Below, in pieces: positions 56,304 to 61,153 of a DNA stretch of 64,000 nt (position 1 is the stretch's first letter; each line of letters begins with the position of its first letter). The position numbers and the translations under genes were made by a program. The notes beneath the pieces were generated by a model. The model made no database searches, was not told the DNA's origin, and saw only the letters and a program-made list of their open reading frames with translations. Source of the DNA: Gamaleyavirus NAN33P5; sequence record OZ035750.1. The stretch is one strand, 5' to 3'.

Positions 56304-56810
56304 TTATTTTGAAGGTCTAGCAGCTACTGGTTTGTTTTCCTGGTTATTGTACTTGCCAGTATATGTGGCAGGTTCTTGAACCAGATGAAATAATACTTGA
56401 GCTATCCCAGCACCAGCCGGGATATGCAGCTTCTTACGACCATGATAGACCAGTTCGAGGGTAAGATACCCTTTCCATCCTGGTTCTATTACAGTATTAA
56501 ATACAGATAATGCACGTCTTGCCCATGTGGATTTATCGTGAACGATAGCTACACAGGATGGAGACATGTTGAACTTCTCAATTGCTGAAGCCAATGCGAA
56601 TTTACCGAAATGGCGTGATACTTGTTTTCCATCAACGATTTTCACCATTGGAATCAACCCAAATAAGCGATAGAAGGTGATGTCTTGTTTGATACGAATA
56701 TCATATCCAGCTTCGCCCAACCCATAGCTTACACCATGCTCGGATACCTTACGGTCTGGGACATCCAGCAATTGAGATGAACGGTATAGAGAATTACCAT
56801 TAACAACCAT
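56304..56810 (-). CDS. dCTP deaminase / dUTPase-superfamily enzyme
   Basis: 168 aa; 'GYDIR' and 'GWKGYLTLELVYHG...IAQVLF' resemble dCTP deaminase motifs. Confidence 0.7.
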   Translation of the reverse strand: MVVNGNSLYRSSQLLDVPDRKVSEHGVSYGLGEAGYDIRIKQDITFYRLFGLIPMVKIVDGKQVSRHFGKFALASAIEKFNMSPSCVAIVHDKSTWARRALSVFNTVIEPGWKGYLTLELVYHGRKKLHIPAGAGIAQVLFHLVQEPATYTGKYNNQENKPVAARPSK

Positions 56811-57985
56811 TATTTCATTCCTTTAGGGATATGAACTACCTCCCCAAAAGGTACGGTAGCATTAGGATTATTCAGAACACACCAGATGATAGGGATATCA
56901 AATGGTAATTCTTCCATAGGACGAACATACATATCGGAGAATATGATTGCAGCGGTTGGCTTATTCTTAATAATCCATTCACGCACTGGTTCAAGGTTTG
57001 TACCACCACGACCAGTAATCTTAATCTCTTCAAAAGTATCTTCTTCAGTGATGTCCATCTCTTCTTGGATAATATCGTCGAAGGTAATTAAGGACATCTT
57101 CTTAGGATTGAACTGGCTCTTAACGTAGGCAACCTCTGAGTTAAAACGCAGAGAGTCAGCACTACTAATAGAACCAGATACATCCTCAAAGTAAGCTAAG
57201 TGTCGTAAGCGTCCTTCATCATCTTCCAGAGAAGGTAGATAGATGTCAGTGAAACGACGGTTAGGTCTGGCCCATGTATAGTGTGAGTCATCAATGTCGG
57301 TAAAGAAGTTCAGTAGGACTTCCTGCCAAGGAACCACTGGTTTAAGGAATTGGGTAATAACCTCTTCCATACGACCAGCACCCTTACCAGGCATCATTCC
57401 ACCAGCCATCTTCTGGCTTTGCATTGCACGTACTACGTTGTTGACAACAGCACCCTGGGACTGCCCCGAAGAGGGAGCTTTCATGTCGCCAGCAAGACCT
57501 GCTCCAGCACCCCCTGACGGCTTCTGCCTTTTCTGAGGGTTCTTCATCAGGTCATCGTAGATGTCTTCTTCAACCCATCCTTTATATTGAGGGTCTTTGC
57601 AAATGCCTTTATCGATACCAGTGAACTTGTAACCATCTTCCTCTAACTGAAGATTAATGAAGTGATCACATGCCTGGTTCCAGACTTCCGGGTCACGGCT
57701 TCCACAACGGATGCCATGGAGATATGCCACATGCCAGAGTTCGTGCATTAGTACTGTTTCTCTTGCATCGGGACACATCCAGACAAAGAAGTCTGGGTTG
57801 AAATGGAGTTCTATCCCATCAGTACATGCAGTGGGGCAGTCTTCACGTTTCCATGAGAACTTAAGACTACACAGCAATGAACCAAAAAATGCAGCAGAGC
57901 GTCCAAGGAATGCATTAGCCTGAATACGGTCATACTCACGCATGAGTTGTTCATCACTAAGTGTGTGCTGAGGTATCTGGTTCAT
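56810..57985 (-). CDS. VWA-like/putative metallopeptidase (DUF2201-like) protein, partner of MoxR-type ATPase
   Basis: 391 aa; HExxH 'HELWHVAYLHG' in N-terminal half; immediately downstream of split AAA+ ATPase gene. Confidence 0.55.
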   Translation of the reverse strand: MNQIPQHTLSDEQLMREYDRIQANAFLGRSAAFFGSLLCSLKFSWKREDCPTACTDGIELHFNPDFFVWMCPDARETVLMHELWHVAYLHGIRCGSRDPEVWNQACDHFINLQLEEDGYKFTGIDKGICKDPQYKGWVEEDIYDDLMKNPQKRQKPSGGAGAGLAGDMKAPSSGQSQGAVVNNVVRAMQSQKMAGGMMPGKGAGRMEEVITQFLKPVVPWQEVLLNFFTDIDDSHYTWARPNRRFTDIYLPSLEDDEGRLRHLAYFEDVSGSISSADSLRFNSEVAYVKSQFNPKKMSLITFDDIIQEEMDITEEDTFEEIKITGRGGTNLEPVREWIIKNKPTAAIIFSDMYVRPMEELPFDIPIIWCVLNNPNATVPFGEVVHIPKGMK

Positions 57986-57992
57986 GTTGTGA

Positions 57993-58398
57993 TTATCCGT
58001 GAATGTAACGAGAGATGTTGGCAGCAGCCTTACGCCATTCAGGGGTAGCCTGAATTTCTGGTAATGCTTTACCTACTGTACGGAAGTACAGAATCTTATG
58101 GGTGAACGTTTTAAAGCGTTCAATATACTGAAGTACATCAGCGAAGTTATCTTCAGTAGTCTTGTTAGCCAAATGGTTAACGGTAGCCCAACACAGGTTA
58201 TTATCTTCCGGTAGTACACAGCCCAAAGGGTCTTTAACTACCTTCTCAATCGTAATCATACGATTGTATACCTGAGTGAACTGAACAAATTCTGTAGCTT
58301 TACCGGCAGTAACGTGGCCTGCATAGTAGATAGAATCTTCATCAGGCAGAGCACCTTCCGGTCGGTTCTTAAGGTCTTTGTTAACAAAGTCCCAAGTC
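57993..58398 (-). CDS. MoxR-like AAA+ ATPase, exon 3 (C-terminal part)
   Basis: Frame continues from inferred 3' splice site (about 58399); ORF-track fragment 57993..58421 starts at a TTG inside the intron. Confidence 0.5.
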
Positions 58399-59261
58399 GT
58401 GATATTCGACGTAGTTCGCAAGACTACGCCCGTTCTCTTATGAACTGCTGCATGTCACCATGCAGACTAGACTATATCAACACCCTTAGCATTACCTGTA
58501 GGGTGGCTACCATTTCGAGCATCATTAGCTTATGCTCTACTCCCTCCCGGGATAGTCGTTGGACATTTATGGAAGTCAGAAATTACGTTTACGTCTAGTA
58601 TCCCCAATTGAGTCCAGATAGGCATCTACGGCTTTAGCAGCAGCTACCTCATCTTTAAACTGTTTGTAGAATACTACCTTGTAATTATCTTTAACCTTGG
58701 CTTCGTAATAAGTGTAAATTTTATCTTTATACTTACTACGACGTATGTGCACATTATGGTACACAGACTTACCTGGTTTAGGGGCTAGCCCAGTTTTATG
58801 AGCATGGAGATTATTGTCTTGTGTGGTGCATGGTTCCAGGTTGTCTTCATGGTTATTCTCCTTATTACCATCTAAGTGGTTAACAGGATCACCATACTTA
58901 AAGCCTGGTTTAAATGCTGCACAAACGAGTTGATGAATAGTTTTCTTATGGGTCTTCCCATCTTTGTACATAGAGGCATACAGATAGCCTAATCGGTTCT
59001 TGTTAAGTGCCCTGATAAGGGGCTTAACTTCTCTGTACTTATTTACAGATTGGCGTGACTCATGCTTACGGTATTTACCTGTATTAGATACTTGGTATAA
59101 ACCTTCAAATTCAACAACATCTTTCCAAATCTCACTCATGCTGACTCCCAATTTAGTAACGGATTGACTTTTACATATTACCTTTAGGCAACAGAAAGTA
59201 AAGTGTTTCCCGTTTTAGGCAGCTTTAGACAGGGAATTACTCCCCTGAATCGCAGTGTGTT
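58399..59261 (-). mobile_element. group-I-like intron B carrying HNH homing endonuclease ORF (boundaries approximate, 5' end uncertain)
   Basis: Interrupts ATPase ORF; contains HNH ORF 58576..59151 and a conserved about 150-nt core shared with intron A. Confidence 0.5.
58576..59151 (-). CDS. intron-encoded HNH homing endonuclease (NUMOD4-like N-terminus)
   Basis: 191 aa; 'EIWKDVVEFEGLYQVSNTGK' and 'HQLVCAAF...VNHLDGNKENNHEDNLE' HNH motif; TTG start in track. Confidence 0.75.
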   Translation of the reverse strand: MGVSMSEIWKDVVEFEGLYQVSNTGKYRKHESRQSVNKYREVKPLIRALNKNRLGYLYASMYKDGKTHKKTIHQLVCAAFKPGFKYGDPVNHLDGNKENNHEDNLEPCTTQDNNLHAHKTGLAPKPGKSVYHNVHIRRSKYKDKIYTYYEAKVKDNYKVVFYKQFKDEVAAAKAVDAYLDSIGDTRRKRNF

Positions 59262-59596
59262 TACGAGGACAACAGAATGTCTTGTTCTTATGGGCAGGGT
59301 CGAAGTCGTGCAGATAGCCAGGGTTAGCATGTAAGAATGCAACCAGACGCTCATCCCATTCTTGTGGAATCATTACGTCTTCAACAAAGATGTCGAAGTT
59401 AAGTTCCATTTCGAAGTGGACAACACGAGACTGCATTGCAGTACCCAGTGGGTTAACGATGGCTCGGTCAGTAGCTTTGTTACCGGCACAGATAATCATC
59501 ACATTAGGGTGAAGTTTTTTCTGTCCAGTCATACGGTCTAGAATCAGTTTGTATGCAGCAGCTACTACTTCTTTCTTAGCTGAGTTGAATTCGTCG
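59262..59596 (-). CDS. MoxR-like AAA+ ATPase, exon 2 (Walker B / sensor region)
   Basis: Begins 'DEFNSAKK...MIICAGNKATDRAIVNPLGTAMQSRVVHFEM'; joins exon 1 to give 'GWLLFLDEFNSA' Walker B; 3' boundary approximate. Confidence 0.5.
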
Positions 59597-60478
59597 CATT
59601 ATCTTCACATTAGTTCGCAACTACTAATGCCGTCAGTACACTCAGTGAATACTGACTGCTGCATGTCACCATGCAGAGGAGACTATATCAAAGCCCTATT
59701 GCTAGGGCTGTTACCGTTTCGAGTGCCATTGGCTTGCACCCTACTCTACTCACTTCCACATTTCTGTGTGTTTTCGATAGTCGTTTGGCGTTTAAATGAA
59801 ATTGGTACTGTACCCAATCTGTGTAAGATTGTTGTTAGTTACGTAGGAGTCATAGGCTTTGGCAGCCTCTTCCTCTGTTTTGTAACGTCCCAAACCAATA
59901 GATTTCTTGTTAACCCTTATATGGGCACACCATCTTTGTCTTTGCTCACTCCAGGATACACCTACGTATTTGGAGGAGCCTCCACGATTTTTGTTACTAG
60001 CGTTGGCATGTCTGTTTGACAATAATCCAGTATCCCAAGCATGTTTAATATTTTGGGACTGGGTACACCATTCCAGGTTACTCTCGTGGTTATTAAGAGG
60101 GTTTCCATCTATATGATTAATAACTGGATAGTTATTGGGGTTTGGTACAAAGGCTATGCCTACCAGACGATGAACTTGATATTTGTACACTTTACTATTC
60201 ATGTACAGGTTCACGCAGTAGTACCCTTTGTTATTAAGATACGGTTTTATATGTGTCCTATTTTTGTATTTATACTTTCCTTCTTTTCGGCGTACTACAC
60301 CAAAGTTGGAAACTTCATACGGTAAGTCGGGCACATCTTTCCAAATTTCATTATTTAGCACAGGATTGTCTCCAATTGATTAAAACTCAAGTATACACCT
60401 GAGCCAACCATATTAGAAGAGGTTCCCTGTTTAGGTAACTTTCGACATGAGATTGCTCTCATGAAGCCCCGTCAGTTA
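59597..60478 (-). mobile_element. group-I-like intron A carrying HNH homing endonuclease ORF
   Basis: Inserted exactly within the Walker B codons; exon 1 ends in U, inferred intron ends in G; contains HNH ORF 59792..60361 and the conserved core 59611..59788. Confidence 0.55.
59792..60361 (-). CDS. intron-encoded HNH homing endonuclease with AP2-like domain
   Basis: 189 aa; 'EIWKDVPDLPYEVSNFGVVRR', 'HRLVGIAF...INHIDGNPLNNHESNLEW' HNH motif and 'YVGVSW...RWCAHIRVNKKSIGLGRYKTEEEAAKAYD' AP2-like domain. Confidence 0.8.
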   Translation of the reverse strand: MLNNEIWKDVPDLPYEVSNFGVVRRKEGKYKYKNRTHIKPYLNNKGYYCVNLYMNSKVYKYQVHRLVGIAFVPNPNNYPVINHIDGNPLNNHESNLEWCTQSQNIKHAWDTGLLSNRHANASNKNRGGSSKYVGVSWSEQRQRWCAHIRVNKKSIGLGRYKTEEEAAKAYDSYVTNNNLTQIGYSTNFI

Positions 60479-60792
60479 AGGAACAAGAGCCAGCCATTAT
60501 AACCTTCTGGTACTTCGTCACCCTCGATAGGGAATAAGTCAGCGAAAGGGATAAACTCTGCACGATCACCATTACGGAATGGTAGACCAGACAAGTCTTC
60601 CGGGGCAGAAGTAGACAGACGATGGTCAATCAGCTTCATGCCAAATTCTTCTGCAACAGAACGAATAATTGCAGACTTACCCATGCCAGGTGATGAAGTC
60701 AGGAACGGTACGTTACCTGCTTGCAAGGCACGGATAATAAAGTTACGGGCTTGGCGTGTATTACATACAGTCAAGGAGTCAATGCTCGCCAT
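60479..60792 (-). CDS. MoxR-like AAA+ ATPase, exon 1 (Walker A)
   Basis: 'FLTSSPGMGKSAIIRSVAEEFGMKLIDHRL' P-loop; ORF terminates two codons after 'GWLLFL' where the intron begins. Confidence 0.55.
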
Positions 60793-60826
60793 TTACTTAC
60801 TCTCCTAAAGTTAATGGAATTACTAA

Positions 60827-61153
60827 TTAAGATTTAACGCAGGGATACGCTGTATCAATCGCTAACAGAACCATGTCTGACGATATTTTTACTGCATTTA
60901 CCTTTCGGTCATACAGAATAATAGATGCCACTCTGTCAAAAATGGGTCCTAACTTCATATCGTCAGGTACACAATTCTTTCCTGCTTCCACTCCCATAGT
61001 AACCATGCCCATGAAGTAACCCTGGTTCACAAAGTTTGCATTATTGGCTTTGTAATCAGCAGCAGCTTCCAACAAGGTTGCACGACTAGATGCCTGAGCA
61101 CCGAATGAAAGAACTGATAGAGCTACAAGAACAACAGCAATTAAAGTTTTCAT
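60827..61153 (-). CDS. secreted/periplasmic small protein
   Basis: 108 aa; signal peptide 'MKTLIAVVLVALSVLSFGAQA'. Confidence 0.4.
   Translation of the reverse strand: MKTLIAVVLVALSVLSFGAQASSRATLLEAAADYKANNANFVNQGYFMGMVTMGVEAGKNCVPDDMKLGPIFDRVASIILYDRKVNAVKISSDMVLLAIDTAYPCVKS

Follow-up and report, generated by a model that had tools for sequence, protein, structure and literature searches.

In this work, the gp24 locus was analyzed in a stretch of 64,000 nucleotides (nt) of Gamaleyavirus NAN33P5 (OZ035750.1), and this whole stretch is called the window below. Three fragments of an AAA+ ATPase gene are separated here by two segments, each with an HNH endonuclease open reading frame (ORF). 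Most probably, the fragments belong to one gene, the gp24 AAA+ ATPase gene of a G7C/N4-like E. coli phage (Gamaleyavirus, Schitoviridae), and the two segments are mobile group I introns, homologous to each other and each with an HNH gene, of the IA2 subgroup and similar to the T4 td intron. We assign this reading a probability of about 0.9. The gene lies on the minus strand, as do the other features of the window described below. Exon 1 (60479-60792, 314 nt) would encode amino acids (aa) 1-104 and the first 2 nt of the Leu105 codon, exon 2 (59263-59596, 334 nt) would run from the last nucleotide of this codon to Arg216, and exon 3 (57993-58397, 405 nt with the stop codon) would encode Thr217-Gly350. 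Intron 1 (59597-60478, 882 nt) starts with UAACUGAC and ends with GAUAAUG, with its omega-G at 59597. Intron 2 (58398-59262, 865 nt) starts with AAACACAC and ends with AUAUCACG, with its omega-G at 58398. A sequence-only reading made before this analysis had proposed an ATPase of about 350 aa split by two homologous group I-like introns. Its exon coordinates were essentially those given here, apart from the end of exon 2 and the start of exon 3, which were each 1 nt off and now stand at 59263 and 58397.

Exon boundaries and the conceptually spliced product

In the ORF listing, ATPase-like fragments were observed at 60792->60472 (ending in ...GWLLFLN and a stop), 59532->59215, and 58421->57993, with HNH-type ORFs between them at 60361->59792 and 59151->58576. 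With megablast, 57900-60900 matched 103 related genomes among 50,697 phage records, mostly of G7C-like Gamaleyavirus (Schitoviridae). Almost all of these gave an alignment of the query in three pieces that follow one another directly in the subject and span about 1.25 kb, and U1G alone covered 71% of the query. About 100 related phage genomes have one gene that is collinear with the three exons, so the arrangement is not due to chance. In SP5M and G7C, gp24 is a single coding sequence (CDS) of 1053 nt, annotated as ATPase or gp24 and as 'similar to gp24 from phage N4'. Comparison with such intron-less relatives, which the sequence-only reading had considered decisive between introns and intergenic insertions, places the insertions inside a continuous ORF. 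Klebsiella phage vB_Kpl_K57alpha1.2, which shares about 97% identity with the window over 21 kb, also has an intron-less gp24.

After conceptual splicing, the joined exons comprise 1053 nt and encode 350 aa without a frameshift or internal stop, and the product is identical at 346 of 350 positions to gp24 of the intron-less SP5M and of G7C. Exon 1 contains Walker A (SSPGMGKS), and exon 2 contains DEFNSA... and the sensor region. Intron 1 interrupts the Walker B box (LFL/DEF, the slash marking the junction), which is restored as ...GWLLFL/DEFNSAKK... on joining, just as had been proposed from the fragments. Intron 2 lies between the codons of Arg216 and Thr217, inside the invariant CPRTW motif, and the second junction reads ...FCCPR/TWDF... 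after splicing. GMGKS and LLFLDE are invariant across the gp24 homologues.

By blastn against SP5M, G7C, and U1G, breakpoints were obtained at 60478/59595 and at 59262/58397 (the latter junction ambiguous by 1 nt), and the final exon limits combine these breakpoints with the U/G rule of group I introns. At both introns the last nucleotide is U in the 5' exon and G in the intron, as proposed earlier for the first one, and U...G boundaries were also found in the gp24 introns of U1G, pYD6-A, Pylas, pSb-1, and pVco-5. The 3' end of exon 1 is UUGUUCCU, that of exon 2 is CCUCGU, and exon 3 starts with ACUUGGGAC. The predicted ligated junctions are ...UUGUUCCU/CGACGAAUUC... and ...UGUCCUCGU/ACUUGGGAC.... 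The literal blastn breakpoint of intron 1 (exon ...CUU, intron ending in C) was dropped in favor of a boundary 1 nt upstream, because all relatives of this intron start with UAAC or UAAU and end in G, and the cost is only a synonymous change. An intein or a group II intron was ruled out by the in-frame stops right after both 5' junctions together with the group I-type core. Neither a sigma-70-like promoter nor an intrinsic terminator is conspicuous on the coding strand of the introns, which is weak evidence compatible with a single transcript.

The ribozyme core of the two introns

All helices from P1 to P9.2 could be placed in group I order in both introns, including the P3/P7 pseudoknot, with canonical pairs at 79 of 79 positions in intron 1 and at 73 of 73 in intron 2. 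The P3-P7-P9 core on which the sequence-only reading depended can therefore be folded in each of them. In intron 1, the 5' ribozyme half (60339-60478) comprises the internal guide sequence (IGS) GGGG of P1, P2 (CAUGAGA-GCAA-UCUCAUG), the 5' strand of P3 (GUUACC), P4 (ACAGGG/UCCUGU), an extended P5/P5a, J4/6 (GCUAAAU), and the 5' strand of P6 (UUGG). The 3' half (59597-59798) comprises P6', P7 (GACUAU/AUAGUC) with GAUAUAGUCU at 59689-59680, P7.1, P7.2, P3' (GGUAAC), P8 (AGCCCUA-GCAA-UAGGGCU), P9 (UGCAUG-GUGA-CAUGCA), P9.1, P9.2, and the omega-G. The same order is found in intron 2, the 5' half of which (59137-59262) carries the IGS GCGA of P1, P2 (CAGGGGA-GUAA-UUCCCUG), P3 (GCUGCC), P4 (AACGGG/UCCGUU), P5/P5a, J4/6 (ACUAAAU), and P6 (UUGG). 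Its 3' half (58398-58573) carries P6', P7 (ACGACUAUC at 58559-58551 and GAUAUAGUCU at 58478-58469), P7.1 (CCC-GGGA-GGG), P7.2, P3' (GGUAGC), P8, a P9 that is the same as in td, P9.1, P9.2, and the omega-G. Both introns possess the peripheral helices of subgroup IA2, namely P7.1 and P7.2 between P7 and P3', and P9.1 and P9.2, together with a conserved AGUAG linker. By comparing both introns with T4 td after removal of the ORFs, J3/4, J4/6, P7, J8/7, and P9 were found to be nearly identical. The cores of introns 1 and 2 are 64-68% identical to each other, in line with the shared non-coding core that had been noticed around the two HNH ORFs.

Covariation was assessed in a MAFFT alignment of six introns (introns 1 and 2 of the window and those of U1G, pYD6-A, Pylas, and T4 td). 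The count was limited to P2, P3, P4, P7, P8, and P9, because MAFFT misaligned P1/P2 of td and pYD6-A as well as the variable helices. In this alignment 96.4% of the cells were paired and 18 of 38 pairs showed changes on both sides, including four of the six pairs of P3 and three of the six pairs of P4. When the partners were slid by 1-3 columns as a control, only 29-44% were paired and 0-2 pairs changed on both sides, and none of 500 shuffles reached the observed values. The minimum free energy (MFE) fold of the ORF-deleted introns recovered P2, the long-range P3, P4, P5/P5a, P8, P9, P9.1, and P9.2, with MFE z-scores of -4.07 for intron 1 and -2.40 for intron 2.

The Rfam group I model (RF00028, Intron_gpI) was applied to 57800-61000 with E-value reporting and matched intron 2 with 35.6 bits (E 1e-6) and intron 1 with 19.0 bits (E 0.1). 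The matches span the whole model on both introns, and intron 2 still reached E 2e-5 when the whole window was searched. At gathering thresholds (50 bits for RF00028), the search of the whole window returned two tRNAs only and no intron. As a control, the T4 td intron reached 42.5 bits, which is also under the cut-off, and five related gp24 introns scored 22-28.5 bits. Since the td control falls short too, the low scores are attributed to the ORF insertions of 570-740 nt and not to the absence of a ribozyme, and the miss at the gathering threshold was discarded as negative evidence. The search with group I models that the sequence-only reading had suggested as a check detected both introns, although under the threshold. 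No further group I intron was found in the window by core-motif search and Rfam at E <= 0.1. The exact GATATAGTCT occurs in the window only in the two intron segments, and the core motif ACGACTATC...TCGAAA is likewise confined to them, the gapped ACGACTATC...TCGAAA pattern itself matching intron 2 only.

The guide of each intron fits its own exon. In intron 1 the exon end ...UCCU pairs with GGGG at intron nt 9-12, and in intron 2 the exon end ...UCGU pairs with GCGA at intron nt 10-13, with a U.G pair at the splice site in both. The geometry of P1 is as in td, with an L1 of 8-10 nt followed by the guide, (C)UU, and P2. The guide varies together with the exon (GGGG/UCCU in intron 1, GCGA/UCGU in intron 2, GGCA/UGCU in Pylas and pVco-5) and keeps a G.U pair at the splice site each time. 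The sequence GGGAAC of intron 1 was also tried as a guide and rejected, as it is the conserved P4 strand common to td and intron 2. At the other end of the ribozyme, the P9.2 loop motif UUGCGAAC is common to both introns (59613-59620 and 58413-58420), and pSb-1 has CUUGCAAAC. This conserved motif may form a tertiary contact or play a role in P10/P9.0.

The substitution pattern was examined by comparing intron 1 with the U1G intron, which differ at 41 of 882 positions (95.4% identity), with 7 of 312 positions in the core and 34 of 570 in the ORF. Of the core changes, one lies in L1, one in the P5 extension, and three at the second base of GNRA tetraloops (L2, L7.1, and L8), and the remaining two form a compensatory change of an A-U to a G-C pair in P7.1. 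Of the 34 substitutions in the HNH ORF of intron 1 (HNH1), 24 are in unchanged codons, and the other 10, in changed codons, replace seven aa. Since the core changes sit in loops or are compensatory and most ORF substitutions are in unchanged codons, purifying selection appears to act on the RNA structure as well as on the endonuclease. Synonymous differences of gp24 from SP5M cluster at junction 1 (60465-60495 and 59575-59600), at nt 307, 315, 318, and 321 of the spliced CDS. They account for 4 of the 29 gp24 differences from SP5M and lie at most 8 nt from the junction of intron 1, and the changes 307 C->T and 315 T->C are common to the window and the intron-bearing U1G. This cluster looks like a co-conversion tract or a change of the site to an endonuclease-immune form.

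Endonuclease ORFs, proposed mechanism, and alternative readings

Each intron encodes a NUMOD4-HNH_3 protein, which agrees with the HNH genes seen earlier in both segments. HNH1 (59792-60361, 189 aa) has a GUG start in the P4'/J4-6 region and a stop just before P6'. The ORF of intron 2 (HNH2, 58576-59139, 187 aa) starts from the AUG at 59139, with the Shine-Dalgarno sequence GGGAG 5 nt upstream, and an in-frame UUG at 59151 would give 191 aa. Read from the sequence, both ORFs are placed at the P6 loop. In Pfam, HNH1 matched NUMOD4 (1e-9), HNH_3 (3.8e-8), and AP2 (4.6e-10), and HNH2 matched NUMOD4 (9.7e-9) and HNH_3 (9.2e-6), all above the cut-offs. Both matched PHROG 59 (phrog_59, 'HNH endonuclease') at 5e-44 and 2.6e-34, respectively. 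The two proteins share only 34% aa identity, and the nearest relatives of both are intron ORFs in gp24 of other Schitoviridae. The closest relative of HNH2 is the gp24 intron ORF of pYD6-A (48.7% aa identity), and nothing in the phage collection exceeds 49% identity to HNH2. At 60330-60365, the P5'/P4' strands of intron 1 contain the predicted GUG start of HNH1 together with its Shine-Dalgarno sequence GGAG, and the P6 5' strand UUGG falls in codons 6-7 (EIW). This overlap suggests that ribozyme folding could mask the translation of HNH1 by sequestration.

We hypothesize that gp24 is transcribed as a single pre-mRNA in which each intron would fold into a P1-P9.2 ribozyme. An exogenous guanosine would attack the 5' splice site after the U of the P1 U.G pair, directed by the guides GGGG in intron 1 and GCGA in intron 2. 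The terminal G of the intron would then dock in the P7 site and the exons would be ligated. Ligation would restore Walker B (LLFL/DEFNSA) and CPR/TW, and thereby the normal 350-aa ATPase. The NUMOD4-HNH endonuclease presumably cuts or nicks the intron-less gp24 of co-infecting relatives, and in homing, recombinational repair would then transfer the intron and a part of the flanking exon to the allele that was cut. The endonuclease activity of HNH1 and HNH2, their target sites, and homing are predictions from the sequence. Introns 1 and 2 are present or absent among phages that are more than 90%, and in part about 95%, identical.

Several points weigh against the interpretation as two spliced group I introns. 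Both introns score under the Rfam gathering threshold. P1 is the weakest element, with 4 base pairs (bp) in both introns, two of the four being G.U in intron 1, and P10 was not identified in introns 1 and 2. The U/G-compliant boundary of intron 1 needs CUC for Leu105, while intron-less phages have the synonymous CUU, and the blastn breakpoint taken literally lies 1 nt off and leaves the intron with a 3' end of C. Intron 2 begins with AAAC, while its relatives begin with UAAC or UAAU. The GUG start of HNH1 is a predicted one, and so is the splicing of the gp24 introns.

The 4-bp P1 helices and the two RF00028 scores under the gathering score would also fit decayed, splicing-defective relics in a gp24 pseudogene, from which at most a Walker A-only fragment of 106 aa is made. 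This is unlikely, as the catalytic-core junctions and P7 are all identical to those of td and no helix is broken. The differences between intron 1 and U1G lie only in loops or are compensatory, and the core is substituted at a lower rate than the ORF. The exons are 99% identical to intact homologues at the protein level, with no frameshift or stop, and T4 td is also under the Rfam cut-off. The automatic annotation of U1G, pSb-1, and pVco-5 gives separate 'ATPase' CDSs instead, and ORF finders see in-frame starts in the downstream fragments. Such records would suit a truly split gene with free-standing HNH cassettes, the three fragments of which are translated apart and assemble as subunits without RNA splicing. 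However, the first usable start of fragment 2 is Met127, which loses the Walker B residues DEFNSA..., and fragment 3 would have to start at a UUG within intron 2 (P9.2) without a Shine-Dalgarno sequence. Reading from exon 1 meets a stop two codons after the junction, and the conserved, covarying core of about 300 nt around each HNH ORF would be needless for a free-standing endonuclease gene. We therefore consider a split gene very improbable.

An assembly or chimera artefact, in which intron sequences of other phages were mis-joined into this genome, hardly comes into question. Such an origin could account for the finding that no INPHARED record has both introns and that the intron 2 24-mer is not in IMG/VR. 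However, the identical 2.8-kb region occurs in a 74,407-bp Logan contig (ERR12949720) and the HNH2 protein on two contigs, the junctions are base-precise at known group I-type sites, and intron 1 stands at the same position in the independently sequenced U1G.

gp24 as a host of related introns

Introns of the same family were found at other positions of gp24. The site of pSb-1 (Shigella) is EDL/SGLP (aa 67/68), that of U1G and of intron 1 in the window is LFL/DEF (aa 105/106), that of Pylas (Klebsiella) and pVco-5 (Vibrio) is AAA/YK (aa 119/120), that of pYD6-A is CP/RTW (aa 215/216), and that of intron 2 in the window is CPR/TW (aa 216/217). All of these sites fall in invariant blocks of the protein alignment, and conceptual splicing of gp24 of pYD6-A, Pylas, pSb-1, and pVco-5 gave full-length proteins. 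The site of pYD6-A (1880-1900 of the retrieved stretch) is 3 nt (one codon) upstream of that of intron 2 (59262/59263) and the guide sequences differ correspondingly, which suggests a site shift within one motif. By comparing the 3' cores, intron 1 was found to be closest to the pSb-1 intron (75%), and intron 2 to the introns of Pylas (80%) and pYD6-A (79%). Introns 1 and 2 are homologous, yet not recent copies of each other.

The records of these phages treat the introns differently. U1G (Escherichia; NC_070872) carries the homologue of intron 1 with the CDS note 'HNH homing endonuclease # Phage intron', the record of pYD6-A has a joined CDS 'similar to gp24', and that of Pylas reads 'ATPase split by intron'. 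In pSb-1 (507-1370 of the retrieved stretch) and pVco-5 (690-1595), td-like introns are present with no intron or join feature annotated, and the locus is given as separate 'ATPase', 'hypothetical', and 'HNH' CDSs. HNH genes were reported to split gp24, the DNA polymerase gene, and gp43 in Vibrio N4-like phages (JA1/VchO139-I), for which introns were suggested (Fouts et al., 2013; PMC3670811). This was the only mention of a split gp24 that literature searches returned, and they returned no splicing experiments. The sequence-only reading had held an ATPase of this kind to be an unusual host, which is not borne out, as gp24 introns recur in Schitoviridae and intron 1 is already annotated in U1G. 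In N4-like phages (Schitoviridae), gp24 is hit repeatedly by introns of this family, and an intron in gp24 itself was already known. What is new here is modest, namely two introns in one gp24 gene and an intron 2 that represents a divergent lineage near the pYD6-A site.

In the phage collection (INPHARED), no record carries both introns and the ORF of intron 2 has no DNA-level match. The exact 24-mer of the intron 2 junction is absent from IMG/VR, and the identical 2.8-kb locus in the 74,407-bp contig of run ERR12949720 is the sole source of intron 2 elsewhere; the HNH2 protein was recovered from two Logan contigs. Among the best 80 gp24 loci of an IMG/VR survey, a td-like core was found in pSb-1 only, a result that is not a frequency estimate, as the survey relied on peptide patterns at the intron sites and its ranking favors uninterrupted genes.

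At least five gp24 positions, in four invariant motifs, are occupied. It is possible, though rather doubtful, that a single td-like intron/HNH lineage has settled at new sites of gp24 again and again, beyond homing to a fixed one, which would make this gene a hot spot. The 4-nt guide may then have been re-tuned to the new exon at each position. The 3-nt offset between intron 2 and pYD6-A, and the likeness of intron 1 to the pSb-1 intron at another site, may record ectopic transposition by reverse splicing or endonuclease retargeting. If so, the site changes of group I introns could be studied on the natural series that the gp24 introns form.

For annotation, the three ATPase or hypothetical fragments and two HNH genes would become one joined CDS with two intron features, and the inconsistent annotation of the U1G, pSb-1, and pVco-5 records is pertinent here. 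With this locus, the set of gp24 introns gains a double-intron allele and a new intron/HNH lineage. As a whole, the set marks the motifs that are most conserved in an uncharacterized but widely conserved ATPase of the N4-like replication region, and it bears on homing-endonuclease traffic among E. coli phages that are therapeutic candidates. General knowledge of group I introns is unchanged by the double-intron gp24.

The identity of gp24 as a MoxR-like ATPase, as the sequence-only reading had named it, is plausible but not established. The AAA+ part of this assignment holds, since gp24 matches PF00004 (AAA) with 28.7 bits (cut-off 21.2). The MoxR part is less firm, as AAA_5 reached only 17.7 bits, under its cut-off of 22, and the best match among PDB sequences is the AAA module of midasin (E 6e-5). 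An NCBIfam search of gp24 gave no match, and some depositors name gp24 homologues 'MoxR-like ATPase'. Downstream of gp24 lies the gp25 homologue (56810-57985, 391 aa), a putative metallopeptidase with a VWA-like domain (DUF2201_N, 2.5e-54; DUF2201, 1.7e-34). It stands outside the introns and gives the context for a MoxR/VWA-type pairing. In the RefSeq records of SP5M, Pylas, and pVco-5, the gp25 homologue bears the name 'HNH endonuclease', but Pfam finds DUF2201_N and the VWA-like DUF2201, and the name seems to be an annotation error passed on from record to record. Between gp24 and gp25, G7C carries gp24.1, an EndZ-like HNH gene that is free-standing (1663-2139 of the retrieved stretch), and the window is without it (57985-57993). 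Different HNH elements thus occur in this neighborhood across Gamaleyaviruses. Elsewhere in the window, two adjacent tRNA genes were observed at 33799-33958 and 34326-34401. One is tRNA-Ile (aat), the second has an odd anticodon loop according to ARAGORN and scores 42.5 bits in Rfam, and a weak tRNA-Sec-like Rfam match was also seen there (34.9 bits, cut-off 47).

Comparison with known introns

The T4 td intron is the classic, experimentally self-splicing phage group I intron of subgroup IA2 and encodes I-TevI. The introns of the window share with it J3/4 (UAAAC), P4 with its partner strand, J4/6 (GCUAAAU), ACGACUAUC in P7, AGUAG between P7.1 and P7.2, UCGAAA before P3', and GAUAUAGUCU in J8/7-P7'. 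The P9 hairpin UGCAUGGUGACAUGCA is identical, the ORF is looped out at P6, the IGS comes after an L1 of 8 nt, and td, too, ends in AUAAUG. On the other hand, the host gene is td instead of the gp24 ATPase, and the ORF of td encodes a GIY-YIG enzyme (I-TevI), whereas those of the window encode NUMOD4-HNH proteins with less than 10% aa identity to it. Compared with td, P5 is extended and P1 is shorter in the introns of the window, and the cores are about 50-70% identical.

The gp24 intron of U1G is much closer to intron 1, with the same LFL/DEF site, the same length of 882 nt, 95.4% identity, and an HNH ORF of 96% aa identity. However, U1G is without intron 2, and 41 substitutions separate its intron from intron 1. 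The other gp24 introns of Schitoviridae resemble those of the window in their 3' cores (60-80% identical), their helices, their host gene, and their ORFs of the same NUMOD4-HNH family (32-49% aa identity). Their sites differ, and pYD6-A, Pylas, pVco-5, pSb-1, and JA1/VchO139-I are without a second gp24 intron. Several group I introns in one phage gene, some with HNH ORFs, are known from orf142 of Staphylococcus phage Twort (three) and from the polymerase gene of phage K (two). These belong to other host genes, intron subgroups, and phage families than the gp24 introns.

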